Below are positions 5,201 through 64,000 of a DNA stretch of 64,000 bases, piece after piece; the stretch's first letter is position 1; each line of letters opens with the position of its first letter. The translations under genes and the position numbers were made by a program. Under the pieces are notes generated by a model. That model was given only the letters and a program-made list of their open reading frames with translations, was not told where the DNA came from and did no database searches. Source of the DNA: Rhizaria sp. SCN 62-66 (taxonomy: Eukaryota); assembly GCA_001724265.1 (NCBI GenBank), contig MEDY01000237.1, positions 1 through 64,000 of the forward strand. The letters are read 5' to 3'.

Positions 5201-6016
5201 CTGCGCCGAACCGCCATAAGCCAGCAGCACCTGCGCCAGCGACTAGGATTGCGAAAGCGGCGACGCACTGGCCACGCCGGGCGCACTCGCAGAGGAGCCA
5301 GCGCCGCTGTTGCCCGACTGGGGGAAGCGTTGGGCGAGCTCTTTGGGCTGCCACTGAGAGCGACTGGCGGGGTCCTCGCCCAGAGCGGCCGCCGCAGACG
5401 CCGCCAAACCGGCCGTGGCAGCGGCGTAGGCGGGCGAGGCGACCGGGGGTGCGAGCGCGACGAGCAGGGCTGAGCCGGGGGGCGGGCGGGTTCCCGTCTC
5501 GTGCGGCAAAGGCGCCTGCGCGGTGGCCGCGAACGACAGCGCTGCGGAGGCTGCGGTCGGGGCCAGGGAGAGCGCCGAGTGGCTCGCAGTCAGGGACAAG
5601 GACGCGTTCTTGCTAGAGAGCGCCGTGGTCGCGGTTGAGGCGGCCAAGTAAGGAGAAGGGGAGATCGATGGCATTGACGGGGCAGTGGCCAGTCCGCCAG
5701 CGCGTGTGTGCCGCGCGTAGCTGCCCAGCGTACCAGCCCGCGCGCCAGCGGTCAGCGTAGAGGCGGCCCCTGAGTGTGGAGGAGGCGCGCGGGCAGAGGA
5801 GCGCATAGCAGACGCGACAGAGGCGCGGCCGTCACGCGGAGTGTGCTTGGCCTCGTGATCGCGGCGAGAGGTGGCACCGAGCTCTCCAGCGTCGAGAAAT
5901 GATGATGAGCTATGTTGCAGAGGACTTTGGAATGCGCCAGGGCCCACAGGGTATGCGGGCAGTGGTGGGCCCAGAGGACTGGACTGCGCTAACGTCTGAG
6001 CAGCAGCCTGGGACAT
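2255..6016 (-). CDS. Large coiled-coil protein of unknown function, about 1253 aa if the in-frame TAG at 5243-5245 is decoded
   Basis: Track ORFs 5243..6016 and 2255..5230 are in the same frame, separated only by one TAG (…CAA TCC TAG TCG CTG GCG CAG GTG…). The N-terminal part is Ser/Ala/Pro-rich, followed by a long E/K/R/L/A/Q heptad-like region (about 4430-2890). No AT-rich intron or spacer at the junction; ends in TGA. Confidence 0.7.
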
Positions 6017-6573
6017 CGGCGAGCGAGACCAGCAAAGTGACTCTAAATGATCGCCGACTCGAGGCTCTATGGGGGAAGTGTCGCAAGGGACCCGAGCCTA
6101 ATAATAAAAGAAATAATTTAAACACCGTAAGTTTTGATCAGAATCAGTGCTATCATTTCTATGGAATTGAGGTTATTCGCGGTCGAGAGCCGTTTCGTAA
6201 GTCGATGAACCAACCACCAGCACTCCAGTCGATACAGTCTTATATTCTGACGCTTCCAAAGATCCCACGGCAGTCTGGCATCATCAATCTTGCCGAGCAC
6301 ACAGAATGAAATTGAAAGATGGCACTTTGAATAGTGACTATATGTGTTAATCTGTGGTCAGGTTTAATTATCTTGTCTAGATCCACGTTCCGGGCTCTCT
6401 GCAGCAGTGCCATTATCGGGTCTCAACTCACCGCGCTATCACTCCCTCACCTTCCACTTGCACTTGCCCCAGCCAACCCTCTTGAGAACCTACTTTGACA
6501 GCATCCGCGCCGCGTCTAACAACACAGCTGCAGTTAGTCCTTGCTCCCGGCTGCTGCCGCACAGCTGCCCTTC

Positions 6574-27498: not shown

Positions 27499-27902
27499 TG
27501 ATGACAAACACGCTGTGAAACTAGGTTTAGTCGATATGAAAGTACTAAAAAATATGTCAATATGGCCGTTCGCCGTGGATAAAAGTCGATGCGCGAACCC
27601 ATAGTTTATAAATACATATATTACGTGTTATAATGATGTTATTTTTAATATTAATAGCAGAGATCCTTGCTTCGTCTAGATACGCCTTGTTATGTGAAAC
27701 TGTGTGTCTCGGCTCCAGAGTCGCGCTCTTGTGCAACGCAATCCTCATAATTCGAATATTCAAGATCTCTCCAGAATGATCGTCATCAGCTCTGTTATGA
27801 TAGCTCTGAATTTGTCACATACTTTTCGCAATGGTTCTAAAATTATATCACGTATCACTGATTTCTTCATTGTTTATCTCTCCATTTTTCCGCAGTGGTG
27901 CG

Positions 27903-40939: not shown

Positions 40940-41516
40940 TGTGCCTGAAAGGGGGTGCGGGAACAGCAGGAATGAGCAAATGTGAGCACGGCAAAGGGAT
41001 AAAAGGTGATGGGGGCAAGAGAGGGAAAAACTGCCCGCCCCTAATTTAGAAGAGAAGATATGTCTCTCAACACATTGAGTCGATGCCGTCATATATGAAA
41101 AATGCATAATTCATTCGTCAAAATAATCGAGAAGATTGCTTCTTTGCAGCGAAATCGACCATGCATCGAGCACATCCATATCTTAAACAGCCCCTCATGA
41201 CGAGTTTGTCGAGCTTGCTTGGTCAGTAAGCGGACACATGAACATGTACTGTTAATCGTCCTTATCGTTGGCAAAACAATGACTAGTGGTTTAAAAAAAC
41301 TATGTGAAATGGAAAGATACAGTACTAGTTGATAGGCGCGCGCAGTTTTATTTTCCTCTGAAACGACACTCAAAGTGAGGTTGAGCTAAAGAGTCGGGAG
41401 AGCGATTCAGATGTTGATAAAGGCATTTAACGGCATACGTAAGGAGTGTCGGGATGTCTTTGCTTGGTGTAAAACCTTATGGGCTGTATTTTAGGATTCT
41501 AGAGTGGATAACCAAT

Positions 41517-42455
<939 letters not shown>

Positions 42456-43010
42456 TTAACTTTTCACAAAACAACCCACCCTAAGACGGTCGAGACCAGC
42501 TCTACCCCCGCCCTGCCCGAGTTGCGGGCATTTTTCCTCAAACTTAAGCCGCGGGGCGTCGACTTGTTTTTACGAACCGGAGATACTTTTTAGGAACCAG
42601 GCCCTCGAAATGATGAGATACATATATTTACATGTATGTCTGACTTCTTCAAATAAAAAACGCTGAATACACTCTACTCAGTTTCAAAGAGACTTTCAAC
42701 GTGTAACTGTGATTTTCCAGCGCCGTGTCCACCAGTCAGAATATGCCCTGCAATCTTGCCCAGCCAAGTTCGACTTCAGCTCTCCTCTCGATGCGGGATT
42801 CAAAGAACAAGCAAGCGTGATAATGATGGGGTCATCGTCAAGCGAAGAGTAAAGTGGTGCGTAGTTGCATTTGTGGAATGTTGTATTGGTTTGGGAAATC
42901 TTTAAGTTAGAGGCGTTCGTCCTGAATGTGGAGTACTGCTTTGAAGCAGTCCTGTCGTACTGGGCCTGAGAATGAAGTCCTGATCGGTTCTTGAGTGTTG
43001 CAGAGTGAGC

Positions 43011-44437
43011 TCAACAAGTGGTCTGCTGTAATGCGGGCTGGGTGCTGCCCTTGCCAAACTCTTTGCTGCCCTTGCGACGCAGCTTCAACTCCTGGCTCAT
43101 CTTGCGGCTTCTACGGTCGCGCTTGCTGTTGCTGTTGTTGCTCTCGTCGTCGTCGCCCTCACTGGCGTCGGCGCTGGCGCTGCCGCTCTCAGTCTCGCCC
43201 TCCCCCTCGCCCTCGTCGTCCGAGGCGCCCTCGTAAGCGTCGGCGCCGGCGTCGTGGAGGCTGTCGGATGTGATCGCGCGGTACAGGATCTTAAGCAGGA
43301 GCCCGAACCACCAGATGTGAAGCACGACGAGTACTGAGAGCAGTACGTTGCACGTCACGGCGCTGATGTAGAAGCGCGTGTATTCGGCCGTCCAGTCGCC
43401 CAGTAGGGCCTTCATGCGCGTGGCCAGCGTGAGCGAGCCGTCGGGGAAGGTCGTGGCCGCCGTGGTGGCGAGTGACGGCAGCGTGCCGCGGCCAATGACG
43501 GAAAAGGGGAAGAGGTACAGCCGGAAGTAGCTCCACAGCGACAGGGTAAGCGCGAACGAGAGCTCGACGATGAACCAGCCTGCACGGCCGTCCAGACGCA
43601 GATAATTACTCATTTTGAGCAGGTCGATGCCGATGTCGGAGATGTCGTGAATGAAAAGCACAACGGCACCGACCTTAAAGTCGTTGTTGGCGTAAGCAAG
43701 CGCGACGAGGCCGATAGTCGCTAAATGGTGGATATACATGGCGAAATAATCCTTGTGGGCGTGCGCGTCGCTGTTAAACCGGTGCGAGATGCAAGTAAAC
43801 ACCCAGACGGCCATTTGCGCGACAAAGAGCATCCGCAGCGACGTCTTAGGCGTGAAATCCTCCGGGTTGGGGAAGAAACACAACCAGGGCTTCGCGATCC
43901 AGGGCTCGCCCCAGAGCACGTAGGCCTCGGCGGTGGCCATGCTGGCGTGAATCACGAGCTGCCACGCCGCGCCGGTAAACTTGGCGCGTGCGGCGCGGCG
44001 GCGCAGCGGGTGGGAAAAGGGCGCGGCCGCGAGCCAGCGCGCTGAGACGACTCTGAACATGACGGTTTCGCAGAACCAGTGCGTCAGGCGCACGGCCGCC
44101 GCGGTGGCGCCCAGCATGAAGAGGAAGAAAAACAGGTCGTGTGGGTTTGTCATCGCCAGGGTGTACAGGATGTAGAGGGTCTCGGCAGCGAAAGTGCCTG
44201 TGAGCAGGAAATCACCTATAGAGAAGAAAATGCAGTCGAGGTGTGGTGTTCAGTGCGTGGAGGGGGAGTTAGAAATGAGTGATTCCGAGATGAAGATTGC
44301 CTTAAATGGGCGTGAAACCTATTTCTAGCTTACGATAGCCTGATGTATGAATGATACACTTGCTTTAAGCACGTACTGAGGGGGGTAATCTGACTTAGGG
44401 CGCGGGAAGTGCTCTTACGAGCGCCGCTACGCATCAT
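43011..44437 (-). CDS. Ceramide synthase (TLC/Lag1p family), paralog A; exons 44437-44377, 44215-43011
   Basis: KF…AWQ, Lag1p motif HKDYFAMYIHHLATIGL…GAVVLFIHDISD…K, W.YFRLY.FP and L.VLHIWWF, followed by an acidic tail. Phase-1 GTACGT intron after the MMRSG… exon; TGA stop. Confidence 0.88.
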
Positions 44438-45929
44438 CCTGTCTGTTGGAGCTTTAGGTAGTTAAACGCCGTCAAACGTTTGCAAAATGCCATGAAATCG
44501 AAATATGTTATCCGTGAGTCATATTTTTAATCTGTTATTGGTGTTATTTTTTGAATATACAAGTATCCATATAAATTTTCTGCGTCTTATGATGGGGCGA
44601 CAGACTATGGTTCGGGGGATTCGGGGTCTCACTAAATAAGCCTACCACACAATTTAAACGCACTAGAAATGCAGTTTAATAATACGATCACTAGAAACAC
44701 AAGTATTGGGATCTGTTAATTAAAGTTTAAAGCCGTTAATATGGGTGTCTACAGAGATATATGCGTGTTTAGGTCTGTGGCCGAATGACGAAGTGCAGTG
44801 ACGTTCGCGGAGTGGGTCTACCTCCAGTTAAAACTCAGCCTGTGGTCAGCATAACAAAACACCGTTTAACGACGCATTAATTCGTGTCATTAAAAATTTA
44901 TGGCATTAATTCAATAAACCCGCCTGTGGGCTGTTTGTAAAACGCATATAAATCTGGAGTCGAAAGTTTGCTATGCTAAAACAAGTCCTTTAAAGATGCG
45001 TTGGCGGTTACGAGCAACAGGTTGATGACGACTATTGACTGAAAGAAAGAAGGCATACGAAATCAAAAATCTTTGTATTGGCGATGAACACACGTTACTG
45101 TTGAATAAAATGATGTAGTTCTAGGAAAACACAATTACGATGCAACGCCTGTTATGGAGCTTCCTCTTTCTGGATATATTCGCGGTCGTGTCAGAATGTC
45201 TGACAAGCGACGACAACAAACACAACAAAAGACAGACAGCTGAAGACAAGGCATAAAACATATCGGAACATGTACAGTATGTACATGTCGTATCATTGAC
45301 ACATTCATGAACAAAAGAACGGCACACTCACAACGAAGTAAGCTGGTGGAGCTCTGGAGCGTGACGGAGCGAATGATACATTTTGAGAATAGGTTAAGAC
45401 ACAAAGTGAAAGCGAGCGAGAAAAGAACATTGCACTGAATACACAAAGTTAAGCCAAGACCCAATGGATAAAGAAAAAAATGACATGCACATTCCATTGA
45501 AGTGTTTGCTTGTTAAAATGATAAGCTTAAGAAAGGGAAACACAGATACAGACACAATGTGATACGATACAACGGCAGCGACAAGCGGCTCAAAAGAATA
45601 CGGAAATACGTAATACTGTCTAACACTGGCTGTAGTCAATGAACTTAGAGGAAACTCTTGGTCTGGTACTGGTATTAACGGTAGTGCAACAAAGACGATA
45701 TTGTTGGTGGTGTTGTTGAAGCTGCTGAAAATGTTTGTTGATATTGTGAAAAGAACAACGACAAGCAAGATGAGCTTATTGATTAATTGGGATTATTACT
45801 CGAGGATAAAACGCACAGAAATCAAAATGAAACAGAATGACGCATACATACACACACAAATAAGAACAAAACACGAAGAAAAAAAAAATCAAATCACGAG
45901 CCTAAAAGCATGCTTGAAGGGTGCCATTC

Positions 45930-47496
45930 TTAGAGAGCCTTCTTGGCAGTCTTGTTGATCTTGGAGCCAAGCTTACGACGGGTCGGCAAGCCGACAGACA
46001 CCATCTCATCTTCGCTCGACTCAGCAGCCTTGTCAGCCTTCGCATCCTTCGCATCCTTCGCATCCTTCGCAGGAGCGACGGACACCGAGCCGCTAGCCTT
46101 GCTCGCGCCCGCAGACGGCGCGACTTCCGGCTTGGCGTTAGCGATGGCCTCGGTCGCGGGGCCGGTCACCTTAGCCTCCCCCTCCTCCTCGTCGTCATCG
46201 TCGTCCTCGCGGTCGGAGTTGCCCTCGTACTCGTCGGCGCCGGCGCTATGGGGGTCGACAGAGCGCAGCATGCGAAGCAAGATGCGGAACAGCAGCGCGA
46301 ACCACCAGATGTGGAGGATGAAGAGCACGATCAAGAGCACATTGCACGTGACACACGAGAAGTAGTAGCGCATGTACGCGGGAGTCCACTCGCCGAGCAC
46401 GGAGACCATGCGTACCGCGAGGGGACGCGTGCCGTCGGGGAAAAGGTAATCTGTGGAGGTGAAAGCCGAGGCGAGTGAGCCCTGCGCAATGATGTAGACG
46501 GGGAACAGGTACAGACGGAAGTAAACCCACATAACCATGGTCATGGTATAAGCGAGCTCAACGATGAAGAGGCCGGGCTTGCCGTCCAAGCGTAAGTAGT
46601 TACTCATCTTGAGGGTATCAATGCCGATGTCGGAGACGTCGTGGGCGAAGAGCACAACGGTGCCAATCTTAAAGTTGTTGTCAGCATAGGCAAGGCCAAC
46701 AAGACCAATCGTGGCCAAGTGGTGAATGTACATGACGAAGTAATCCTTGTGAGCGTGGGCGTCCGAGTTGAAACGGTGGGAAAAACATGTGAAAATCCAA
46801 ATCGCCATTTGCGTCACGAAGAGCAGGCGCAGCGAAGTCTTGGGCGTGAAATCCTCCGGGTTCGGGTAGAAACAAAGCCAGGGCTTCGACAACCAGTCCT
46901 CGTCGTGCAACACGTAGATCTCAAACAGCGCCATGCTTGCGTGGATAACGAACTGCCAGGCAGTTCCGACGAACTTAGTACGCGCGCCGGCCTTCTTCAA
47001 AGGGTGGTTAAAGGGCGCATCACGGAGCACGTAGCCGGAGACAAAGTCATGGACAACGGTGTTGCAGAACCAGGTGGTGGCCTTGACGGCAAGGGCCGTC
47101 ACGGCGAACATGGCGATGAACACGGTGAAGTCGGTCGTGTTTGTGGTGTAAATAGTGTAGGCGATAGCCAGAGTCTCCAACAAGAACGTGGTCGTCAAAA
47201 TCGTATCACCTGTGGGGAGACAGAGAAAAGAGTGAAGTAAAGACGTTCGTTGAAGCGATACAATATTATAAGATGAGGGTGAGCGGAGTCGGGAGAGTTA
47301 GTCGAGGACAACATGAGAGCGGATGAGACAAGGCTGTGATGTGACTGCACGCGAGGCAGACATGAAGAGAAGCACAGAGGTGCACTGGAGCAGGCACTAC
47401 AAGGCACATAAAGCCCGTTTGAGTGTGTGTAAACGTACCTGTTTTAGAAAGCGTGTTCAAAGGACGCGGTTTGGCCACTTGGCCGCGACGCATCAT
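45930..47496 (-). CDS. Ceramide synthase (TLC/Lag1p family), paralog B; exons 47496-47439, 47209-45930
   Basis: Same Lag1p motifs and same intron position as paralog A. C-terminus VGLPTRRKLGSKINKTAKKAL ends in KKxx; TAA stop. Contains a 9-nt repeat x3 (DAK) at about 46042-46068. Confidence 0.9.
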
Positions 47497-49179
47497 CTCT
47501 GACCGGAGGCTGTGTTGAGGAGGGGTGAGAGGCAGCGATAACGAAAAAGCGAACAAAGAAGGGCTCAGAATGAGGCACAACAACAAATGCTACAAGTGAC
47601 GCCAGATATTGAAATAAGAATTCTTCAGAAACAGTTGTGCTTAATCTCTGAATTGCGATTGTTTATAAGCCAAAGATCCACCGATGCAAAAGCGCGGGTG
47701 CTGCAACGAAGCAGAAACCGGTACAAGCGGGAATACAAATGGTCGCTCAAATCAAGGGCTGACGAAACCATCGTAAAGATACAGCAAGCTACGTGATTCT
47801 TATCATGTTATAGCGAGAGCCTGCTCTAAACTGACGAAGATTGGCCTGTTTTCAAAGGCCTTTGAGCTAGTCGCCAATCCATGGACACCCTCTTCGACGA
47901 CGGGCATCCGGCTGAGCAAGGCTAATAGAAAACCACTCGTGGTCAGATTGTAACAGCGTTTTTATCAACACGTGAACAGTTAACAGTGCAAAACTTCTCC
48001 CTTTGAACTGTATCACTTACTATATTAAATGAATTTTGCTATATTATTTCAATCATTTGTGGTTATCCAACTTAAACTGGCTTGCGAAGTGAAACTTCAT
48101 GCCCCTCGCTGCTTTCATCATTCATTCGACGCACATAACAAATATATTTCATAGTAACCAAGTGTGATACGTAAATATTGCATCTACACAAGAGACAACC
48201 TAATGAATTATATGTTTTTGAGTGCGGATTGCAAATTCAAGTCATTATAAACGACTGCATGTCGATGTACCATAAGACATCAAGATCGTAACACAAGGCT
48301 CTATGCTGAAAAGAATGGATATAATGCGAATAATCACATGCGCTCGAGTGGTGGGATACATACAAATGTATTGGAAAACAAGTGAGCACCAGTGACGGCT
48401 TTGAAAGTGCTCAAAAACATGAAAAAGATATAAAATAGCGTTTGTGCTATCTCAAGAATCAATCTCACATTAATCAACGGCAACAACAAGCAAAGCAGGA
48501 CACGTCGTCATTGTAAATGGCAGCTTAAATATATAGTAGTAGTCGTGTGCGGTGATATAAAATATACAGCATTGTAACTGCAACATAATCTTCAAGCCAC
48601 AGCACCAACAACAAAGATGCGCGCTGCCGTGGTATAGCAAAAACACGCGGCAACACGTTCGCTGTTTGTTGAGCTTGTGATAAATAAGATCTACCTGAAT
48701 GACAAAATGTACATGTCAATAGACACTAGGCCATTGCGACCGTTGAAAATATAAAATGATGAGATGTGAAATCGAGGTTGGAATGATGAATGAGGGTGGT
48801 GAAACCATGAGGGATATACAACACACAACAATGCAACGTGGCTTACTGCGAATAACCTAAAGCAGTCTGTAAGGAACAGATTCTGGGATAGATACTTCAT
48901 AAGCAAGATATGACTGCGTAAATCGGGCAAAACTGTTCGGAATATCGCTCTGGCAAGGATGGATAAACGCTGATGATGACGATGTGATGTCGAAAAAGAA
49001 GGAGTAGAAATTGACAACAACACACCCAAAGAAAATGAACTTGAGAAGAAAACTAGAAAATATAAAACTTAAATATAGCTGTGTTGATGTTGGGTAGCCT
49101 CGTCAGCGTGTTTTTTGACCAAAAAAAAAAGGTAAATCAAATATACTGTTTCTGCGTCAGCCGAAGTGAGTCGGCAGCA

Positions 49180-50750
49180 TTAGACGGCCTTCTTGCTGGT
49201 CACACGGCCGCCGAGCTTGCGGCGCGTCGGCAGGCCAACACGCACATACTCGTCCCCATCATCAGCCGCCGCAGCGGCCGCAGCGGCAGCAGGGGCAGCA
49301 GTCGCCGTGTTGTCAGCGACTGCAATCACAGCGGCCTCCGCCTTGCCCTAGACCTGCGTCAGCGGGGGCGCGTCTATGACAGCGGCAGCAGCGGCGGCGG
49401 CAACGCGCTTGGGCCCCAGCGCGGGACTCGTGCCGCGGCTGCTGCCGACGGTGCTGGTCGAGTTGAGCGGCTCGTTGTCCTCGTGGTCCGAATCGCCCTC
49501 GTACTCGGCCGCGCCCGCGCTGTGCGGGTCCGTGCGCACCATGCGGATGAGGATGCGGAACAGCAGCGCAAACCACCAGATGTGCAGCACAAACAGCAGG
49601 ATGAGCAGCAGGTTGCAGATGACGCCCGAGACGTAGAAGCGCGTGTACGCGGGCGTCCAGTCGCCGAGCGCGGCGACCATGCGCGCGGCCATGGCGTGCG
49701 TGCCGTCGGGGAAGGTGAAGTCCATCGTGCGCTGCAGCGAGGGCAGCGAGCCCTGGCCGATAATGAAGAAGGGGAAGACGTAGAGGCGGAAGTAAACCCA
49801 CATAACCATGGTCATGGTGTAGGCGAGCTCGACTATGTACAGCCCAGGCTTGCCGTCGAGGTGCAAGTAGTTGCTCATCTTGAGCGTGTCGATGCCGATG
49901 TCCGAGATGTCGTGCACAAACAGCACGATCGCGCCGACCTTAAAGTTGTTGTCGGCGTACGCGAGACCGACGAGGCCGATGGTGGCCAGGTGGTGGATGT
50001 ACATGACGAAGTAATCCTTGTGCGCGTGCGCGTCCGAGTTGAAGCGGTGCGAGATGCAGGTGAAGATCCAGATCGCGATCTGCGTCACAAAGAGCAGGCG
50101 CAGCGACGTCTTGGGCACGAAGTCGACGGGGTTAGGGTAGAAGCACATCCAGGGCTTCGACAGCCAATCCTCGTCGTGGAGCACGTAGATCTCGAAGATG
50201 ACCATGCTGGCGTGGATAACGAACTGCCAGGCTGTGCCGACGAACTTGGTCCGCGCGGCGCGCTTCTTCAGGGGGTGGTTAAACGGAGCGTCGCGGAGAA
50301 CGTACCCAGAGAAGTAGTCGTGCATGACGGTGTTGCAGAACCAAGTGGTGGCCTTGACGGCGAGGGCCGTCACGCCGAACATGGCGAGGAAGTAGTAAAA
50401 GTCGAACTGGTTGGTGGTGAAGATGGTATAGGCGATGGCCATCGTCTCGAAGAAGAACGTCGTCGTCAGAATCGCGTCGCCTGCAAAAAAGAAGGCAAAT
50501 GGGGGAAAACGTGAGAGAGTGAGAACAAACGGCGAAGAAAGATGTGGGGGTATAGCAAGGCGAGAGAGTTTTAAACGGACGATACGAGTTTGAACACAGC
50601 TGTTGACGACGGGGCGAAAAGGCGGTTTACCGAGAGCAGAAATGCAGTGAACGCACGAGGAATGCACAGCGTAGTTAGAATGTGGGACGTACCAGTGCGC
50701 GACGGCTTGTAGACACCACGCTTGGGGCGGGGCGGGCCCTGGCGCATCAT
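49180..50750 (-). CDS. Ceramide synthase (TLC/Lag1p family), paralog C; exons 50750-50693, 50480-49180; in-frame TAG at 49348-49350
   Basis: TLC domain closely similar to paralog B. After the TAG the frame continues 55 codons to VGLPTRRKLGGRVTSKKAV-TAA, matching the paralog B C-terminus. Confidence 0.88.
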
Positions 50751-51454
50751 TGTATCAAGTGAGCTATTCGTTCGGGCAAAGAAGGCAAACGTTCGGAGGG
50801 ATAATTGTGGATGTCACTCGTTAGAAATGAGGCATTCTTGTATGTTTCAGATTAGGTATATGAAGCTTGTACGTAAAAACATAGACGAAATCCTCTAAGG
50901 AGTCGCGGTTAGATGCGCGGCGCCCCCGAAAGTTGCAACCTCGAATCGCGCCCACAGTTAAAGCCTCGCTTTGGCTACGAACATGATCCTGCTCTGAAAG
51001 CTATAAGCTGACACACTCTATAAAATAAAATGTGTAACCCCGCTCTTCGCGTATGCGTACAATGTGTTATGGTTCAGAACTGTCGTTTGTGCGAGTCAGC
51101 ATATCGCTCGTTCGAACGGCTGAGCAACCACCCGCGCGAGGGGCCGCGTCACTATCACCGAGCCAGTTCGGGAAGGACTGGGGAAGCGGGTTCGGCAGAG
51201 CTAACAACTTGAAAACAAGTCAAGTGCATGGTTACTGTTGCAAATTCATTGTCACTCGCATTTTCCTTGTCACGAGATAACATATCGACAAAACAAACAC
51301 TCTGTTGGAGCTTATTCTGTGTGCGATATATGCCTGTAAATCGTTCGATGTGACCAGAGCGCACGTGTAACAACTTGCTGTATATCCAAATAAATAGTGT
51401 TTATTGATAAATATGGATCAAATGAACGTGTTTTGCTTCTATGCGCAAGCTATC

Positions 51455-54400
51455 TTACATCCACTCGAGCGCGAAGTCGGCGACCTTGCCGCTCTTGCTC
51501 TCGTCCACCGGCGCCCCAGTCAGCATCGTCTCGCGCTGCGCCTGGCCCGCCGCGAGCGCGTCCTCGCTCAGCGCCGACGCCAGCCACGGCACGAGCTCCT
51601 TGAGCTGCGGCTTGACTTCCTCCGCGCTGGGTGGGTTGACGATAAACATGCCGGAGCCGATGGTGAAGCCAGAGCTATTGGTGTAGACCTCCGCCACAAC
51701 CGCGGTGTCCTTGGCTGCGGCAGCAGTCGCACGGCCTCCGCCGCGGCTGGGATCGGCAGCAGAGTCAAGCTCGAAGCCGCGCAGCGCGCGCACGGCAGTG
51801 GGACCCAGTAGCTTCGCCGCCGCACTCTCATCCAGCTCATCATCATTGACAGCACCAGCAGCACTGTGGGTGACACGGTTGTTCCTGTCGTTACTGTTGC
51901 TGTTCCTGTCGTTGTTCTGAGAGAAGCGGCTGTGCTGTCCGCTGTTGGCACCGCGGTCGAAGGCCCGCTTGGACGCCGCCAGCGCGCCGACCTGCTCGCC
52001 GCGCGCGCGCGCCGCGTCGCCGAGCCCGTTGAGGTTGTCGGCGGAGCGTAGCAGACGCTGGACCTCCTCGCTCGTGGCGACGCGCCGCGCGAGGTCCAGG
52101 AACAGGTCGCGGTGGCGGTGCCGCGGTAGCGCGTCAAAGGCGCGGATGAGCGTGCTCTCGTACACGCGCTCGTTGGCTGGCGTGCGGCGGTCGGACGACG
52201 CGGCCTGCGCGGCCTTGATCAGAGCGCGGGTTTCGTCGGCGGGTAGGAAAGACTTGATCTCCTCCTCGAACTCGTCTTCGTTCTTATCAACCTCACTTTT
52301 CGCGTTCTTAGAAGACGTTGCGCTGTGATTACCGTCAGCCGCAGCATTAGAAAGCGCGGCCGCGTTGTCGCCAGAGTACCACTCGCGTGCCCGCTGCGCC
52401 TCGGCCCTGCGCTGCGCGGCGACGCCAGAGCGCTCGTCGTCGAGCGCCTGCTGCGCGCGCCGCTCGTGGTCCGAGGCGCGGACGGCCTGCGCGCGCGCGA
52501 GCTCTGACTTGAGCAGCGCGCCGGGCCGCAGAATGGGATACCACACGGCGACGCACGCAGAGGGCCACTGCGTGAGCGTCGAGCGCAGGGAGGCGAGGAC
52601 CGAGGCGAATTCGTGCGCGCCCTCGTACGCGGGGTCAATCAGCACCAGCCCAGGCGGCGCGGCCGGGACGGTCTCCCACTCGCTCGCGGCCGCAGAACTA
52701 GAGTTGGCGGCAGTCTTCGTGTTCGCGAAGTTCTTGGTGTTGCTAGTGGGAGACTTGCGGGCCTTGCGCACGGTCAGTCCGCGGGGGTTGTCCTCCTGCA
52801 TTTCGCGGTACACGCGGGCCAGCCGCTGCAGCAGGTGCAGACCGTTCTTGCGCGCCACCGCAGTGCCGGAAGTCAAGCCGCCTACAACATAAAAGAAAGA
52901 TAAAGTCGAGTACACGTGAGATAACTAAGTAAAATAATTATAACAATGCGTGAAAAATTCGTTATTATGTTGCAATTTTAAGAAATAGTTGAACATATTT
53001 CGAAACATGTTGACAAATGTGCAGTTTCGTGTGATTTTTGCTACGTCACGTACCGGGCATATGGGGGCCGAGCAGGAAGCGCTGCAGGGCCTCGCGGCGC
53101 GCCGCGCGCACGGGGGCCGCGTCTGTCACGCCGCCAGGGGCGCTACGGGCGCCGTCGGCGTCGGCAGCCAGGGAGGCGAGCGCGCCGCTGTCTGTGCGCA
53201 GGCCGCGACCGGTGCTTGTGCTGCGAGTGTTACCGCCGTTGAACCAAGAGGACGCGATAGGGGCGGAAAGAGGATCGCGGGGCAACTCGTTCATATCACT
53301 GTTGCTCGCGATCGCGTTCTCGTTCACCGCGGTGACTGAGCTGACGCCGGCGCCCGCGATGCTCACGGTCACCTCGCCGTCGTTCTCGCCCTCACTGCCG
53401 CCGTCATTGCCGTTGCTGGCATCGCGCTGGTGGTGGAACTGCGTGTCGCTGCCCGCGCGCCCCGGTGCGAACCGCTGCGCGTGGTCAGTGAAGGTGTCCG
53501 CCAGACTGGGGTTAGCGTAATGCTCCAGCAGGCGCGCGAACTCGGTCGTGTGCAGCTCCGACAGCAGCACGCGGTCGCGCCCCGGCCGCGCCAGCGTCGT
53601 AAAGAGGAACGGCGACGACGGCACGCGCTGCAGCGGCGCCGTCACCGGCAGCGCCAGCGGCGCGAGAGACCGCGCGCGCGGGGGCAGCTCGGCAACGTGC
53701 TGCGCGAAGTCGGCGCGCAGCGACGCCAGCACGGCCGCGCGCGGGCGCTGCGGCAGAGTGAAGGGTGACGGCAGCGCATCGTCAGTGGGCTCCCCGGGCG
53801 CGCGCGTCGCAGCAGAAAAACCCGCGCGCAGGCGGGCGACGGCCGTGGCCGCGGGGTCGCCCTTGACGGCGGGCACCTGCGCGCCGGCCTCGGTCGCGGC
53901 GGCCGAGGCGGCGGCGGCCAGCGCGCGCGCAGCCGCAGCCAAACCCATCGCGCCGCCAGAGCCAGCGCCAGTGTCAGTGCCAGCGCCAGTGCCAGTGTTG
54001 CGAGAGGGGATGTTTGCAAGGCGGAGCGCGGCCGCGATGGACGCGTCGGCCGCGGTGAGCGGGTACGTGCCCTGCGCCAGCAGCTCGATCTTCTCGCCCA
54101 CAGTCACGCGTAGTGCGGACCGGCCCAGCGGCGGCAGCAGCGCCGCGGGCGCGCGCGCCGCCACGGCCTCGGCGTCTTTGGCCGCGACGGCCGCGGCAGC
54201 GGCGGCGGCCTTGCGCGCCGCGGGGGGGCCCGAGCGCGCAGCAGCCTGCGCGGCGGCCTGAGCGGCGGTGGCGGCGGCGGCGGCCGCGGAGGCCGAGTGA
54301 CGCGTGTCGTTGAGCGGGGCCGTCTCCAGCACCAACGCGCCCCCGCGCGCAGCGGCCGCGCTCGCGCTGAAGGCGGCGCTGCTGTCAGCGTTGGCCGCCG

Positions 54401-55903
54401 TGGCCGCAGTGGGATAGGGCGCGGGAGCGTAGGTCAGGGCCTCGTCCGCGAGGGTGTACCGCGCAGACGACACATACCGCAGGTCCGGGAACGCAGAAGG
54501 CTCATACGCGTCCTGGCCCTGCTGCTGGAGCTGCAAGGGGGAGAGGCCGGCGCTAGCGGCGGCGGACGCGGCGGCCGTGGCGGCGGTGTCGGCCAGCGTC
54601 GTGTGGCCCGTGATCTGCGCCTCCGCGTCGAGGCGCCCGTCAGCAGCGAACGGCAGCGTGGCCGCCAACCGCGCGCGCTCGGCCGCGACCAGGCGGGCCG
54701 CGGCGGCGCTGGCGCGGGCGCTCTCGCTCTCCGCGGCCGCGCTCGCCGCATCGCCACTGTCGTAGCCGTCGCTGTTTGCGTGACTGCTGTGGGCGCCAAG
54801 AGGGGAGAGCGAGGTGCGCAGGCGCGAGTGCGACTGGTACATGGGGAACTTGCGCTCCGCCGTGGCGCGGTTACTCAGCGCGGCCTCGGAGGCGGCGGCC
54901 CAGGGGTCCGCGGCCGCGGCAGACGCGCCGAACGCGAGCACGTTCCTTGGCGAACTCGCACTCGCAGGCGAAGGCGATGGCGATGGCTTGGCAGGAGCAC
55001 TGTCGCGGTCAAAGTTGCGGCCTAAACTGCTGTTTGCGTTCGAGCTCGAGCCGTATGGGGATGACTGTGAGCGCGATGCGTTCTTGTACTCATGATCACG
55101 AGTGTTCTTGTGGCTGCCGGCGTTGCCGAACTTCTTGGTGGCGGAGCCCGTCTGCGAGGGCGAGTGCGCGTGCGTGTGCGGCCGCTGCAACTGCTGGCGC
55201 TGCTGGGTCTTCTGCTTCTGCGCCAGCTGCTGCCAAACGTTACCCACGGTCGCCTGCCCCTGCTCACGGTCACTGTCACGCTCACGGCCGCTGTCGCGGT
55301 CACCGTCGCGGTCGCGGCCGGAGTTGTTGCGAGCGTTGTAGCTCATCTCACGCGAAGCCTCTGCATTCACTGCACTGGCCTCGCTGTTGGAGACAGGGTT
55401 ACTGTGAGCGTGAGTGAAGCGGGGCATCAGCGCCATCGAGCGGGCCCTGCGCGTGAGGCTGAGGCTCGCCGACTGCGACAACAGCGCAAGCCGCGACGGG
55501 GACGCGCGCATGGCCAGCCACTGCCCGCCCAACGGCCCACGCGCACCGAGAGTCGCGGCGGCGGCGGTTGTGGGGAAGGCAGAACGGGCGGTGACGGCGG
55601 CGGCGGCGGCGGGAGGGAAGATGCGCGCCGCGGCCGCCGAGGCGGACTCACGGCCACCGTGGCCCTGGCCCTGGCCCTGACCGTGGTTGTGGCCGTAGGT
55701 GTAGGGGCGGGACGCGGCCGAGGCGTAGCCGCGCTTGACGAGGGTGAAGTACGGCGACAGCTTCGTGCCGACCGCGGGCCTCTCAGCCGCAGCAGCATGA
55801 GCTGCAGCGGGGGCCGAAGCAGAAGCAGAAGCGGCAGAAGCAGAGATAGAGCTAGAGCCGGAGCTCGCGCTGTTGCCAGAGCTGCCACTGCCACTGCTAT
55901 TGC

Positions 55904-55943
<40 letters not shown>

Positions 55944-58900
55944 AGCAGAGGGCGGCTTGCGCCAGGAGTTGTCGATGCGCTCGTGGGACCGCAGAGAGGA
56001 CTCGTTGCGGGCGCGCTGCTCACGGTCACCGGAGCCGAAGCGCGGCTCACGGTCACCGAACCGCTGCTCACGGTCACTCGAGCGGGGGCGCTGTTCGCGG
56101 TCGCCGCGCATGTTGCCGCGGTTGGTGTGGGACGGAATCGAGTCGGCCTCGGCGTTGTGCGACGAAGGCCAGCTCGCCGCTGCAGGAGAACGGCGCTGAT
56201 GCTGCGGCTGCTCACGGTCACGAGGACCACGCGGCTCACGGTCGCCAAAGCTGCGTTGCTCACGGTCACCGCCACGGTCACCGCCACGGGGACTGAACGA
56301 GCGCTGCTCACGGTCACCCGAGCCGCGCTGCTGCTCACGGTCACTAGGACGGTCACGGGGACCACGCTGCTCACGGTCAACAAAGCCGCGCGTACCTTCA
56401 CGCGTGCTCTCACGCGTACCGTCGCGCGTACCGTCGCGCGCACCGTCGCGCGCATCGTCGCGCGCACTACGCTGCGGCTCTGAGCGGCCCTTGGGGCTCA
56501 TGCCGCCCCAGCGGCCGTGCTCGAACGGCAGCCCCGCCTTGGCGGCCGCGGCCGCGTCTCCTGCGCGCGCCTGCCCGCCCCGGTACTCCCGCTTCCCGAA
56601 CGCGGCGGAACCATCACTACTGCCGCTGTTGTTGCTGTTGTTGCTGTCAGTGGAGGGCGCTGAGGTGCCGAAGGGCGAGCGGAAGCGGTCCTCGCGCTCG
56701 GCGTCGCGCAGCGCCCCGCGTGCGCGGGCCTGTGTGCGCGCCGCGGCGGCCTGCAGCGGCGACAGACGGCGCGTGTCGACGCCAGCCAGCTCGACGTCGC
56801 CGTCTTCGTCATCGTTGGTATCGTGGGTATTGGGATCACGGCCGTAGCTGTTGTTGCCGCCAGCAGCGGCGGCGGCGGCAGCGGCGCGGCGCAGGGCGGT
56901 GTGGTAGCCCTTGTCCTTTGAGCTGATAAGCTCCTCGCCCAGCAGCGCGTCCAGCCGCGCCTGCCGCTGCCACGCGGGGCCGGAGCCCAAAGCGTCGTGG
57001 TCGAGATCGGCCAGCTCGAGCAGGCCCAGGTCGTCGTCGTCGCCGTCAGCAGTGTTGCCCTTGCCCTTGCCGCTCTTGCCAGCAGCACTGTGGTTGCTGA
57101 CAGGGGCACCGAACTCCCAGTCGCGGCCCGCGCCAGGCCCGGCGCCGTCGCCGCCGAACGCCCCCGCGCCGCCCGCGCCCGCGCCCACCGCCGCCGCCGC
57201 GGCCGCGGCCGCAGGGGAGAGAGGGAGCAGCGCGTCGATGACAGCCTGCGCGCGCGCGGCGTCGGGGCTCAGGCCCGCGGCCGCCGCCACGGAGGCCGCT
57301 ACGGCTGGGGTGAGGGCGCCTCGGTCCACGGCCCCGCCGCTGGTGAGGCCGGAGAGCGTGGAGACCGCGGGCGCGGGGGCGGGGAAAAAGGACGCGTGGC
57401 CTGCCGAGGCCGTAACCGTAACGGCGGAGGCCGAGGAAGGATACACGGGGACGGCGGCGGCCTCGCTCCGCAGCAGCAGCGCCGCCACAGCGCTCTCATC
57501 CTCCGCCCCCGCCCCCGCCCCGCTACTATGGGAACCCGTGGTGGAACTCGTGGTGGCGATGGCGGTGGCGCCGTAGAGCTCGTCCTCGAGGACGGCGACG
57601 GGCCCGCCTGCGGCCGCGGCGCCGCCCCGCGCCGCGGGCCCCGCCGCCCCCCACACTGCGCCCGCGGCGGCGGCGCGCAGCGAGTGCGGCACGGCGGCGA
57701 CGTGGCCGAACTGCCCGCCGTCGTTCTCGCGGCGCGCGGCGCGGCGCTCAAGCCCGCGCAGCTTGTACGGGTGCGCCGTGCGCCGGTCCGCGTCCGACAG
57801 CGGGAGCGCGTCGGGATCCGGCAGCTCGGCCAGAGTCGACAGCGCGGGGGCGCGGTTGGCCGCCGAGAGCAGCGCCAGGTAGGGCGCCAGGGAGGGCGGC
57901 AACGGGAGGTGGCGGTGCATGTAAGCCGCGAGGGGCGCAGTGGACGGGGAGTGCGCGTAGAGTAGGGAGGCGGGGGGCGCGGGCAGGTGGGACGCAAAGT
58001 CTGCGCCTGCACTCTGTGTGTTGTTGGCGCGACGGCTACCCTTGCCCTTGTCGTCTGCCGGCAGAGAGCTGGAGGAGTCAGAGGGGTCCGTGTTAGACTT
58101 CGAGCTACTCGAGTCAGCGCTCTGCGCCTGTGCGGCGGAGGAGGAGCTTGACGGCGCAGGCGCGATGCCGTGGAGCGAGAGCATCGAGCGGTGCACGGCA
58201 TCCACGTACGCCGGGTCCGGCGGCTGCGACAGCAACGGCGTCAGCGCCAGCGCGCGCGCCACCGCCGCCGCGCGGGCCTCGGCCGCAGTCAAGCCGGTCG
58301 AGGCGCTGGCGTGGGCGGTCGCATTGATGCTGCTGTTGCTGATGCTGTTAGAGAGATCGCTGCTGGCATGCCCGCCGCCGTCGCTACCGGCTGAGGACAC
58401 AGCCTCTAGCAGCGCGGCGCGCGCGTGAAGGCGCGGGACGAGCGGCGCGCCGGCGGCGGGCACGGCCCAGCCCTCGCGGTGCGGCGCGGCGTCGTAGAGG
58501 TCCGACGCGGGGCTGTGCAGCGGCAGGTAGAGCGCGGTGTGCGAGGCCAGGGGGAACGGCAGCGGGCCGTGGGGGGACGGGAAGGGAGACGAGCCGTCGC
58601 ACACGCGCCCCGCGCCCGCGCCGGAGCCAGCAGCAGCGCCAGAGCCAGAGTCAGCGGCGGCGGCGGCGGCAGAGGCGGAGCTTGGAGGGCTCGAGCGTGC
58701 AGTCGTGTTGGCGGCATTGGCGTTGACGATGGGGGGCACTGGGTTGAGGTACGACAGACGCGTGATGTGGGGGTTCTGCGCCGCGATGCGCGCGATATCG
58801 TACACGCGACCCACGCCCGCGCGGTACTCCTTGCGCTTGGCGGCAAAGTCTGACGTGAGGTCGTAAGCGCCGCCGGGGCCCGAGTGTGTGTCGATGAAAA

Positions 58901-59030
58901 GGACGCCGTGTCCGTGGCGGCGCAGCGACTGGCCGACCAGCAGCGCCAGCGTGGCGTGCTTAAGCACGTCGCCATGGTTGCCCGCGTGGAACAGGTGCCG
59001 GTATGACAGCGGCTGGCGGCGGAGGGCCAT
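51455..59030 (-). CDS. rlmJ: RlmJ-family (bacterial 23S rRNA A2030 N6-methyltransferase-like) protein, about 2467 aa; exons 59030-53054, 52881-51455
   Basis: RlmJ blocks occur in order: LSYRHLFHAGNHGDVLKH, IDTHSGPG..YDL…EY..GV, LAPYL, VPSSP…RPGRDRVLLSELH, GLVLIDPAYE…WP…VWYPI and GSGMFIVNPP…LVPWL. One GTACGT…TAG intron; TAA stop. Confidence 0.85.
56015..56465 (-). repeat. Coding tandem-like repeats (GDREQR/DREPR and RDGA/RDGT) inside the RlmJ-like insertion
   Basis: The plus-strand unit gctcacggtca(c) recurs many times between about 56015 and 56380, followed by 12-nt cgcgtaccgtcg-like units. Confidence 0.75.
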
Positions 59031-59542
59031 GGGCGGACAACGAGGCGCGCGGCTGGAGGGCGTGAGGCGTGGGGAAGTTTGTTTCTAAGGGGTGAAAAAA
59101 AGGGAGACTCTGGAGGTATAGACGGAGTGTGGGTGAGAAAATAAAAAGAAAATGACATGTTTAAGAGAAATAAAGTCGTAAAATCGTAGAGCCAATGTTA
59201 TCATCGGAAGGTTAGTGGTCGAAAATGCGAAAGACCGGTGCTGCAACAAGGTCCGACGTTGGATGCGGCCGCGGTCTGAGTGAGGCGAGGTGCTCACTCG
59301 ATCGCCCAACAAAACACGATGCATCTCCGTGGATACGCAATTAAAGTGGGATATTACTAATAGAAGTTGAATTTATTTTTATACTTTTCCCTTGTTATCT
59401 TTATCTCACCTCTATTGACGGATGCCTCCCTTCTTTACTTCCACTTTTCTTATTGCGTTCGCAGAGTTCTCTCAGCTTAACTATCTACCTTATCCGACCT
59501 GCCTGCTCTCGCCAGCGCATCTCAACAGTCGCCTGCGCCACA

Positions 59543-61881
59543 ATGAGTAGTCTTGGTCGCGCCGCACTCTCGGCCACTGCGCGCACTCTCGTTCCTCGCC
59601 ACCGCGCCGCGGCATCGGCGACGACAGCAGTCTCTCGCTCTTTCTCATCCTCGAGCAACAACAACGATGACAACGAGAACAGCAACAAGCCGTCCCCTGT
59701 CCCTGTCCCTGCCGCTCCCGCCAAGAACATCCCCGAGCCCGACGCGCTGCTGTTTGCCGCGCTGCGCCGCGCGGGCCTCAGTGCCGCGACCCTCCGCTCC
59801 ATCGGCGACCTCGCGCTCTCCGGCAAGAGCAAAATCACCCAAACCTCTCCCACTAACTCTGGCGCTGCTGCTGCTGCTCCGGGCGCTGTGTCGCTGCCAC
59901 CCGTGCTACAGAACCTCATCGCCGCGCTGGCCGCGGACCCGCAGCTGCCCCTGCGCGCGCCGCGTGACATTGATGCCGCGCTGGCCGACCCCGCCGTGCG
60001 AGCGACGCTGACGGAGGGCGAGCTGGAGACGATCCGGCGCGTGCTCACGCTTGCGCCCACGGTCACGGACCCCTCGGCCGCGCCACGCGCGCCGCTGGGC
60101 TCCTTCGGCAACAACAACAGCTTCAATGCGACCGCGAGTGTGAGTGCGAGTGCGGGTGGCGCGCTCGAAGCCCTGCCGACGCTGCCCGTCCCGCTCGACG
60201 CGCGCCTGCAGCGGGCGACGCGTGCCATCGACCAGGAGCTCTTCGCGAGCGTCATGACCACCGACCTCCCGCGCGCGCGCCGTCTGTTGGCCGCCAAGGC
60301 GGACCCCAACGCGTGGGACCCCGTGCTGCTGACGCCGCTGACAGTTGCGTTGCGCACGCCGAACAACCGCGCGCTGCTCGCGCTGCTGGCCGACGCGGGC
60401 GCGCTCGTCGGCCACCTGCTGCCCGCGACCAACTTCACGGAGGCGCGCGACGCGGCGGCCGCGGCTGCAGCGGTCTCGGACGTCAAGGGGCGGAACCCGG
60501 GGGTGCTGAATGGCGCCGAGATCGGCCAGATGGGCGCGATTCCCAACGGGAATAGCATCGTCGCGCATCTCACCTCCGACTCTTCTTTGAACACTGGCAA
60601 CACAGCAAGCACTGCAAGCGGCACCAACGGCAGCACCGGCAGCAAGTGGCGCGGACTCGCGGCCCCCGTGCAGCTGGCGCCGATCCACATCGCGGCGACG
60701 CTGGGCGACGCCGACAACCTGGCCTTTCTGCTCGAGCGCGGCGCGCCCGTGTCCTCGCGGACCTCGCTCGGCGACACGGCACTCCACCTGGCCGCCGCGG
60801 CCGCCAAGCCCGCCGCAGTGGAGCTGCTGCTGCGGCAGGGCGCCGAGCCCAACGCGCGCTCGCCCCAGGGCACCACCGCGCTGCACGAGGCGCTTCGCGC
60901 AGCGCCGTCGCCGCAGTCGCGTATGGCCGTCGACCAGCTGCTGTTTGCGCGGGCCAACCCCGAGGCAATGGCGGCCGACACGCTCGACTCGCCGCTCACG
61001 CTCGCGGCGCGCGTCGGCGACCCCGTCACCATCAAGTTCCTCCTGGCCTACGGCGCTGACCCCAGCGCGATGGCGGCCAGCGGAGCCGTGCCCGTCGCGG
61101 CCGCCATCGAGGCCGGCAACGGGCCCGCGGGCCGCGCGCTCGCCGCCGCGGGCGCACGCGTCGGGCTCGGCTCGGACCGCCGCTACGGCAACCCCAGCAG
61201 CGGCCACGGCCACGGCGGGGTGTCGGGCGTGGAGGCTGCGGCGAGCGCGGCGGGCGGCAGCATGCTGCACTTGGCGGCGCGTAAGAACAAGGCGGGCGCG
61301 GTGGCGTGGCTGGTCCAGGCCATTACGGCCGAGGAGACGGCGCCCGCGAACCCGCGCTTCCCGCAGGCCAGTCAAAACAGCCACAACAACCACAACGACC
61401 TTGGCGGTAACGACGGTTCGAGCGCCAGCGCCAGCGTTAGGGCGAGTGCGAATGCGGGTGCGGCCAAGGAGGGCGCGCGCCGGCCGTCTGTGGACCAGCC
61501 CGACTCGGCGGGCGCGACGCCGCTGCTGGCCGCGGCCCGCGTCGGCGCGCTCGAGGCTCTGAGCGCGCTGCTCTCTGTCGGCGCGAGCCCCGACCTGGCG
61601 TGCCACCAGGGCCACACGCCGCTGCTCGCCGCCGCGCTGCGCGGGGACGCGCGGATGACCACGACGCTGCTGCAGTGGCGCGCGGCGGCCGACCTGCCCT
61701 GCGCGGGACTGCTCGGGGTCACACCGCTCATGATGGCCGCGCGCGTCGGCAGCGCTGAGTGCGTGGCCGCGCTGCTCCAGGCCGGGGCCAGTGCCGCGCG
61801 GGCCGATGTTAAGGGCCGCGATGCGCTGGGGTGGGCGCGGGACGGCGCCGAGGCCGCGGGGGCAGAGATCGCGGTCGCCGG

Positions 61882-61918
<37 letters not shown>

Positions 61919-64000
61919 GGCGGCAGCGGCAGCGGCAGCAGCAAGACTAGCAATGGGACTGTTGTGACGAGCAGTGGCAAGGGCAAGGGCGCAAACGGCT
62001 GGGACGAGATTGTGGCGCTGCTTGTGGCCGCTGAGGCGAAGTAGCGCGGTAGCGGCGGTGGTACTAGCAACCGCAGTTCCGGTGGCAACAATGGCGGCGG
62101 GTCGAATAACTCTGGTGGCAATGGCAGTGGACTCGCGGCAGCAACATAGGCAAACCGGCATACCTTTGAATCTCTTTTTAACAACGCCAACAACAATGGC
62201 AACAACAAATCAGACAAGAAGAACGCTAAGACGAGCTCGAACACCGACACGACCCGTCATAGTTCAAGTCAAAACACGTCCACTGTGAAAAGCTCACACA
62301 GCAGCACCGAGACCAGCCCCAGCCACGACCGCAACATCGGCAGTAGTCCCCGCCGCCGCAATGTTAGCGCCGCCAGCCGCAACCGCAACAGCAGCAGCGG
62401 CGGCAGCAGCGGTGGCGGCAGCAGCATCGCCGTCGACCGTGCGGCCGCCGCCGCCGCCGCCGCGGCCCGCGCAGCCGGGGACCCTTCGGGCGGCGCGCGG
62501 GCGGTGCAGACGGCGGCGGCGGTCGAGTCCGCGCAGCGGCGCCTGCTGCTCGACAGCGCCATGGTCCCGGGGCTCAGTGTGGTGGCGCTGCCGACCGCGG
62601 CCGAGGCGGCGGCGGCGAGTGTGGCTCGCGAGTGGGAGCAGGAGGAAGACGACGAGGCCGAGGTCGAGCACGGGTTTCTGCGGAACCTGCACAGCGGCGG
62701 TGTAAGTAAGCTGAGCTTGAATAGCGGCGAAGACGATATCGGTCCTGTCGCTGTGCGGGGCGCCAAGAGTGTGGCTGCCGTCGTCACCGACAGTGGCGAG
62801 GAGCTCGACCCCTTCGTCAATAACAGTGACATCGTCGATGTCTTGGACACCAACACTGTTGACCTTGACAGCGACGTTGAGCGCGCGTTTGGGGCGAGCA
62901 ACAACAAAAACAAGCCTAAGTCAACGTCAAAGACTGCTCACATCGCTCCTGCCGTGTACACCGACGTTGAGGGCAACGAAACCGTCGTCAGCGCCGCTGC
63001 TAGCCGCGGCCCGCTGTCCGACGCGGAGGCGGAAGCCGAGGCCGAGGCCGTGTTGCAGCGCCTCATTGCCGACTCCGACTCCGAGTCAGCCGCCGGCCTG
63101 CGCGAGCGGCCGCGCCCGTCGTCGGCGCGCTCGCCGCCGCAGCGCGACCCGCAGTACGAGGAGCCGCTGCAGCGCAGCGTCGAGGGGCTGGCCGTGCGCC
63201 GCGGCGGCGTTCACCCCGTCACGGGACTGCCACTGGCTGCCGCCACCGCCGCCGTGTACCTCGACAGCGGTAGCGAAGGGGTCGAGTTCGGCCCTCTTGG
63301 CAGCGACAGCGACGGGCGGCTATTCATCAGCCGCGGTCACGGTTACGGTGGCGGCGACGACGCTGGGTCTGGCATGGAGTTCGACACCGCGAGCGGCAGC
63401 GGCAGCGACGGGGACTTCCGTGTCACTCACGGCCGTCGCAGCCTCGGCCGTCGCCGCGACGGCGGCGACAGCGACGGCGTCGACAGCGACGGGTACGACT
63501 CCGAGGGCCGCAAAGTAATCCGCGTGGTCAACGATGCCGGCGAGGTCGAGGTGTACGTGTTTTCTGACTCGGACGGCGAGCCGCGCTCACTCGACGAGGC
63601 CATGGAGGCGGTCTACAGGGCCACCGACGCCGACGCTGATGCCGCGGACAGCGACGGGCCGGACGCCGCGCTCGTCGCGCTTGCCAACGCCACCGATGTC
63701 GACGCGGACCACTTCTTCTCCGCGCACGGGCCCAGCGACGCGGCCGGCCGGGCGGACCCGTTTGGGTACTTCTCCAGCCAGAGCGAGAGCGAGGGCGCCG
63801 TTCTTCTGCACCGCGGCGGCGGCAGCAACAACGGCAACGGCGGCCGCAAGCTGCTGCCGCCGGTGCCCCCGCTGGGCGGCGGCTCCGGCGCGGCGCTGCA
63901 CGGCCACGGGCACGGGTACGCAACACACGGGTCGCTCGCATACGGGGACTACCTGCCGGGCGTTGTGCGTGACGCCTGTGCCCCCGGCGCGGTGCTCAGC
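59543..64000 (+). CDS. Ankyrin-repeat protein with putative mitochondrial presequence; reads through TAGs at 62042-62044 and 62147-62149 and stays open to the window end (3' partial)
   Basis: N-terminus MSSLGRAALSATARTLVPRHR…SRSFSS is R/S/A-rich and acid-free. Ankyrin motifs include APIHIAA, GDTALHLAA, GTTALHEA, SPLTLAA, GATPLLAAA, GHTPLLAAA and GVTPLMMAA. The same frame has no TAA or TGA from 59543 to 64000. Confidence 0.75.

Follow-up and report, generated by a model that had tools for sequence, protein, structure and literature searches.

The 64,000-nucleotide stretch of contig MEDY01000237.1 analysed here, hereafter the window, carries three tandem minus-strand genes for TLC-domain proteins, named A, B and C, and the reading frame of C contains a TAG codon upstream of a conserved C-terminal tail. 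The three proteins match PF03798 with scores of 83.9-87.2 bits, above the Pfam gathering cut-off of 24.6, and exon 2 of C matches this family with an E-value of 1.9e-23. Similarity is also found to the solved structures of human CerS6 (8qz6, E 1.7e-13) and yeast Lac1 (8izf, E 9e-5). Residues H162, H163, D190, S192 and D193, which make up a His-His pair and a D-x-SD stretch, are invariant in 8 of 8 aligned sequences, and we take these two elements to be the Lag1 motif. As in the Lag1/CerS family, the TLC domain with its HH and D-x-SD residues is accompanied by an acidic cluster past the last helix. Judged by the TLC domain, the Lag1 residues and the similarity to solved structures, A, B and C belong to this family and are predicted ceramide synthases, which would N-acylate sphingoid bases with acyl-CoA.

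Each gene is composed of a short exon 1, which encodes a protein start of the form MMR..., one intron at an identical position, and a long exon 2. In C, exon 1 (50693..50750) encodes MMRQGPPRPKRGVYKPSRT and the first base of a Gly codon, and intron 1 (50481..50692), which is predicted from the sequence, runs from the donor GTACGT to the acceptor ttttttgcag. Exon 2 of C (49180..50480) comprises the TLC domain, the acidic cluster, a linker with the TAG, and the tail. Gene B has exon 1 at 47439-47496 and exon 2 at 45930..47209, the latter ending in VGLPTRRKLGSKINKTAKKAL-TAA; a metagenome record, L002, is identical to it. Gene A has exon 1 at 44377-44437 and exon 2 at 43011..44215, and it ends with TGA. 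Over 335 core codons, B and C have an identity of 81%, a synonymous divergence (dS) of 0.91 and a ratio of non-synonymous to synonymous divergence (dN/dS) of 0.13, while A is more distant. By this comparison, B and C are old duplicates.

The minus-strand frame of C reads ...AAVIDAPPLTQV-TAG(49350..49348)-GKAEAAVIAVADNTATAAPAAAAAAAAADDGDEYVRVGLPTRRKLGGRVTSKKAV-TAA(49182..49180). The TAG, at 49348..49350, is codon 397 of a 452-codon frame that joins exons 1 and 2, and the sequence is coding-like on both of its sides. The frame runs through ...PPLTQV to the TAG and continues for 55 open codons (49183..49347), which consist of an Ala-rich linker followed by the last 27 residues, DDGDEYVRVGLPTRRKLGGRVTSKKAV. 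The end of paralog B is ...VSVGLPTRRKLGSKINKTAKKAL-TAA or, given more fully, ...SEDEMVSVGLPTRRKLGSKINKTAKKAL-TAA(45932..45930). The GC content of the stretch behind the TAG of C is 0.71, compared with 0.32-0.49 behind true gene ends, and its frame is free of stops, while the other two frames of this strand have 2 and 3 TGA codons. Behind the TAA at 49180..49182, which would terminate the gene with the TAG translated, the GC content falls to 0.36.

The tail of C includes the motif VGLPTRRKLG (49210..49239), which is identical at the protein level in B (45966-45995) and is also present in two orthologs from other organisms, P0004 and P0006. The codons of C and B in this motif are GTT/GTC, GGC/GGC, CTG/TTG, CCG/CCG, ACG/ACC, CGC/CGT, CGC/CGT, AAG/AAG, CTC/CTT and GGC/GGC. 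There are thus 6 synonymous and 0 non-synonymous differences over 10 codons. The ortholog P0004, which is 75% identical, ends ...DVQRVGLPTRRKLGAKATKTKKNSKTD, and P0006, which is 51% identical, ends ...EPVRVGLPTRRKLGKSKKI; in both, the motif is followed by a Lys-rich end. Within the Lag1/CerS family, VGLPTRRKLG is limited to the small clade of B, C, P0004 and P0006. Because the motif differs between B and C at synonymous positions only and recurs in P0004 and P0006, it is not a chance match, and the tail is, from these comparisons, a real and selected part of the protein family that lies behind a stop codon in C. An initial annotation of this DNA had placed a conserved tail and a KKxx signal past an in-frame TAG in C, and the ends of C and B, as read from the sequence, bear this out, with the coordinates correct. 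It had also described VGLPTRRKLG as the same protein sequence encoded with synonymous differences and had proposed a codon comparison of the two tails; all four kinds of difference that it listed are present, and the comparison gave the six-to-zero count above.

If the TAG is read, C ends in KKAV (49183..49194), and B ends in KKAL. Both fit the K-K-x-x form, with Lys at position -3 and at -4 or -5, as this signal is defined in excerpts of PMC4647206. The related form KXKXX fits the ends of P0006 (KSKKI), P0011 (KAKKV) and P0007 (KSKAE). Among the C-termini compared, a di-lysine end is not present in P0004 (NSKTD) or in paralog A. The C-terminus of ceramide synthases is cytosolic, and KKAV may act as a retrieval signal for coat protein complex I (COPI). 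In having K-K-x-x at the very end, B and C resemble the lipid enzymes of the yeast endoplasmic reticulum (ER), which often carry C-terminal di-lysine ends (PMC4647206, in excerpts). Paralog A (43011-44437, minus strand) ends in a different basic tail, ...KLRRKGSKEFGKGSTQPALQQTTC, and has lost both VGLPTRRKLG and the di-lysine end; the three paralogs may therefore differ in sorting or regulation.

The in-frame TAG of paralog C

The letters of the TAG recur outside the window. The assembly record L001 carries an identical sequence, its end being cag gtc tag ggc aa. Six contigs are recorded with a 364-residue product of C that starts at an internal Met and stops at the TAG, and a seventh has a variant that differs in its last residue only. 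No full-length C with a sense codon at the position of the TAG was found among the matches from 5.8 billion clusters searched. The scan of metagenomes returned L001, which is the gene itself, L002, which is paralog B, and TLC genes that are only distantly related (28-46% identity); no locus of a close relative was among them to show the codon at the TAG position. Scans of prokaryote genomes and viral contigs with the C locus gave no matches. Contigs of four sequencing runs on 43000-62999 list no differing letter at 49348-49350, where their coverage is not demonstrable; the tables of these contigs were flooded by low-complexity matches from other organisms, and this result was not counted either way. 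P0002, from an assembly of another source, has 364 residues like P0025, but it ends in ...TQL and not in ...TQV. The difference may stem from a second haplotype with a polymorphism beside the TAG, or from an artefact at the end of a contig.

The TAG could be an error of assembly or base calling, or it could be spliced out with an in-frame intron. The genome does have introns, several TAGs in the window are acceptor ends, and frame-keeping GT..AG pairs can be found around the TAG, for example CAG/GTCTAG...GACGAG/TAT, which spans 105 bases (slashes mark the boundaries); in addition, the contigs of several assemblies break near this position. However, the window has few introns, and 9 of the 9 recognised ones start with GTACG[TC]. 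Between 49150 and 49560, GTACG[TC] occurs once, at 49504, and the only partner with which it keeps the frame would remove the motif, which leaves no usable donor. The stretch in question is 71% GC and coding-like, in contrast to the read intron, which is CT-rich and much less GC-rich. Because of the absence of a GTACG donor nearby, this composition, the identical letters in L001 and the stop-ended product on 7 contigs, both the intron and the assembly error were rejected, and we regard explanations of this kind as very improbable.

A different explanation is that TAG is an ordinary stop and that C is a young nonsense allele fixed in the sampled populations, encoding a 396-residue tail-less enzyme whose former tail has not yet decayed. 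The initial annotation had read the synonymous differences as selection on the translated tail. Such selection is shown for the time since the duplication of B and C, but alone it does not prove present-day synthesis of the tail, as a young nonsense allele would give an identical picture. Since C is one of three tandem paralogs, its loss would be buffered. Family members without the tail exist, namely paralog A and, as predicted, P0008-P0010. A recent change could also be fixed everywhere, because there is little divergence among the sampled strains (run X4 differs from the window at 13 places over the 20 kb compared), and with the codon usage of this DNA, TAG is the likeliest outcome of a random nonsense change (64%). 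On the other side, the lineages have diverged to a dS near 0.45, at which 30 bases of untranslated motif should have gained several replacements; there are none, so the nonsense mutation would need to be very recent. Base-calling error and a recent or heterozygous nonsense mutation, which the initial annotation had named as possible objections, are both weakened by the TAG in L001, the stop-ended product on 7 contigs and the lack of a sense-codon form. We consider a young nonsense allele rather unlikely, in part for reasons that lie in other genes of the window and are described below.

It is also conceivable that TAG is generally a stop with programmed partial readthrough in C, which would yield a short tail-less isoform and a long isoform with the motif and K-K-x-x. 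Readthrough gives metabolic enzymes of fungi and animals peroxisomal signals, and the known leaky stop contexts are UGA-CUA and UAG-CAR-YYA. The context in C is TAG-GGC-AAG, which is unlike these, and the other in-frame TAGs of the window share no context with it. Furthermore, the linker is uninterrupted in B, P0004 and P0006, so the stop is not conserved, and the predicted fold of the 117 bases that surround and follow the TAG is no better than that of shuffled sequences (z -1.5; 13 of 200 shuffles as good). What speaks for readthrough is that the extension is conserved, in frame and terminated by a sorting-type motif, and that functional readthrough is known to add targeting signals, such as the peroxisomal targeting signal 1 (PTS1) behind UGA-CUA (PMC4207609, in excerpts). 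As in the PTS1 cases described there, C has a sorting-type C-terminal signal behind an in-frame stop; unlike them, it has UAG-G, its stop is unconserved in paralogs and orthologs, and other genes of the window have in-frame UAG codons. Readthrough in C therefore appears distinctly unlikely.

Other in-frame TAG codons and gene ends in the window

A codon model was trained on eight genes, with the three TAG-bearing genes excluded, and was applied to the in-frame flanks of every stop triplet of the window on either strand, 3129 in total. When 120 bases were scored on each side and both flanks had to exceed 0.1, two triplets passed, and both are TAG: 49350(-), in C, and 5245(-). When the flank length was set between 90 and 300 bases and the cut-off to 0, the triplets that passed were likewise all TAG, namely 49350(-), 5245(-), 62042(+) and 62147(+); a marginal out-of-frame TAG at 59548 also survives, at 90 bases. 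No TAA or TGA with in-frame coding-like flanks on both sides was found among the 3129 stop triplets.

The second in-frame TAG (5243..5245, minus strand) is located in a long coiled-coil gene, the frame of which is open from 6097 to a TGA at 2255. Both flanks of this TAG score as coding (upstream 0.30, downstream 0.34), and the third codon position has the highest GC content (GC3) on both sides. Across 5246-6016, the frame of the coiled-coil gene is the only one that is open. The third in-frame TAG (62042..62044, plus strand) lies behind the ankyrin repeats of a gene that starts at 59543, and the fourth (62147..62149, plus strand) follows 35 codons past the third. Behind the fourth, the frame is open and coding-like to the window end, and its first in-frame ATG is about 135 codons past the TAG. 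Around the in-frame TAGs the GC content is 0.65-0.73; it is lower past true gene ends (0.32-0.49) and in intergenic DNA (0.39-0.48), where each frame has 1-16 stops per 400-500 bases. In total, in-frame UAG occurs at 4 sites in 3 of about 16 genes. The three sites outside C are not explained by a young nonsense allele in that gene.

Nor does such an allele explain the gene ends. After the sorting of introns, 14 gene models end with TAA in 8 cases, with TGA in 6 and with TAG in none. The TAA ends are those of a gene at 6538-9828, a gene that ends at 11695, and the TAF2-like, Nckap1, MutS, eL43, ceramide synthase B and RlmJ-like genes, while the TGA ends are those of the E2, coiled-coil, GMC oxidoreductase, cyclophilin, kinase and ceramide synthase A genes. 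Some TAGs had at first been taken for ends of open reading frames; the one at 19896 is within an intron, and those at 52925, in the 27288 region and in the 11125 region are splice acceptor ends. Given the usual share of TAG among stops, the absence of TAG from 14 ends would have a chance probability of a few per cent. Within coding sequence, TAG is present 4 times per 15000 codons, or 0.27 per 1000, and the rarest ordinary codon, ATA, has 0.40 per 1000.

The window as a whole consists of GC-rich coding blocks, with a GC3 of about 0.8, that alternate with AT-rich spacers. Its eukaryotic genes include those for Nckap1, a cGMP-dependent-type protein kinase, a MutS homolog, a TAF2-like protein, a GMC oxidoreductase and ankyrin repeats, and a cyclophilin, an E2 enzyme and the ribosomal protein eL43 were also identified from translations. 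DNA of the window is contained in metagenome runs from bioreactor, wastewater and sludge that belong to 11 studies. The intron donors are unusually uniform on both strands, and several acceptors end in ...TAG. The eL43 gene (41500-42460, minus strand) has three introns of the GTACGT type and an apparent shift of the reading frame within about 15 bases, which may point to an indel in the assembly, to a pseudogene or to a genuine oddity. The MutS homolog (27810-36545, plus strand) comprises 2911 residues in one open frame, and long inserts push its domains I, III and V far apart. An RlmJ-type rRNA methyltransferase signature is split over 51455-59030 on the minus strand, with the N-terminal part, YRHLFHAGNHGDVLKH, at about 58900 and the remainder at 51455-52924; the two parts are separated by about 1900 low-complexity residues and a predicted intron (donor 53053, acceptor TAG 52925). 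For X8, a run of poly(A) RNA, contigs align collinearly to the genome at 50614-51026 and 52848-53231, stretches that span part of the predicted intron 1 of ceramide synthase C and the predicted RlmJ intron. This collinearity may be due to DNA carry-over, unspliced RNA or wrong intron calls.

UAG as a candidate rare sense codon

Taken together, these data make it fairly probable that UAG is a rare sense codon in this organism, with UAA and UGA as terminators. Each line of evidence is modest, and together they point one way: if UAG were not sense, 3 of about 16 genes would have to contain a premature stop or to adjoin another gene with no spacer between, each time at a TAG. The initial annotation had claimed that the TAG of C is translated. 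This is now partly supported by three more in-frame TAGs in two genes, the lack of any such TAA or TGA and the absence of TAG from 14 gene ends.

A number of points weigh against a sense UAG. There are only four sites, and all of them are in unalignable low-complexity linkers, away from conserved, alignable positions, so that the codon cannot be matched to an amino acid and no homolog proves translation through it. The gene models of the two other TAG-bearing genes depend on composition and open frames. A HMMER search with the region behind the fourth TAG (62150-63997) matched only its own protein (P0027), and a word-based search with residues 990-1485 of the gene with the third and fourth TAGs gave no match among proteins of 816-2599 residues. 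The 14 gene ends are a small sample. Because 64% of random nonsense changes give TAG in this codon usage, the fact that 4 of 4 in-frame stops are TAG is weak alone (p ~0.17). The window contains 0 tRNA genes and 0 Rfam matches. Because the eL43 gene shows an apparent frameshift, the assembly may contain errors, and because tail-less family members exist, a truncated C could still work.

The host is a eukaryote with introns and GC-rich DNA; it is uncultured, and it is known solely through metagenomes of bioreactors and wastewater. If UAG is sense, this host would read the codon always or nearly always as an amino acid and end its genes with UAA or UGA. The insertion of an amino acid by its ribosomes at UAG is what we infer from the frames described above. 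Ceramide synthase C would then be made as a 452-residue ER membrane enzyme, whose cytosolic tail would carry VGLPTRRKLG and the K-K-x-x end, as in B. The codon would be very rare, and all four in-frame copies lie in unconserved low-complexity linkers, which are the expected first sites for a new sense codon.

Codes in which UAG is sense and UAA and UGA are stops have been described for the rhizarian exLh, where UAG is Leu, and for Iotanema spirale, where UAG is Gln (PMC5304391, in excerpts). UAG reassignments have also been reported in phyllopharyngean ciliates (PMC11687900, in excerpts). Like exLh, the window has in-frame UAG in coding sequence and gene ends with UAA and UGA only; there are 56 UAA and 15 UGA in 71 transcripts of exLh, and 8 and 6 in the 14 genes here. 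However, the excerpts of PMC5304391 give 384 in-frame UAGs in 71 genes of exLh, many at conserved Leu, whereas the window has 4 in about 15000 codons, and these are in unalignable linkers. The literature search, which did not extend to supplements, yielded no description of a code with sense UAG in either a labyrinthulomycete or a eukaryote from wastewater. The code of this organism would be one more of the UAG-sense kind, set apart by its rare use of UAG. Whether it is a further independent change of a nuclear code, in which only UAG has turned sense and which has been caught early, seems to us about evenly balanced. At such an early stage, UAG would be gone from gene ends, rarer than any ordinary codon and restricted to unconstrained linkers.

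Should C prove to be a young truncation, the finding would only be that one of three paralogs is truncated, which is of little interest. A sense UAG would have wider consequences. Gene callers that use the standard code would cut proteins of this host short, and the recorded 364-residue product of C would be an example. Since the DNA occurs in runs from 11 studies, RNA and protein data could be collected. Nuclear code changes that touch UAG alone are known from few lineages, and the onset of such a change is an open question. A genome in which UAG is off the gene ends and yet barely present in coding sequence would show the early phase directly, and the tail of ceramide synthase C would be the first place where functional sequence depends on the reading of UAG.
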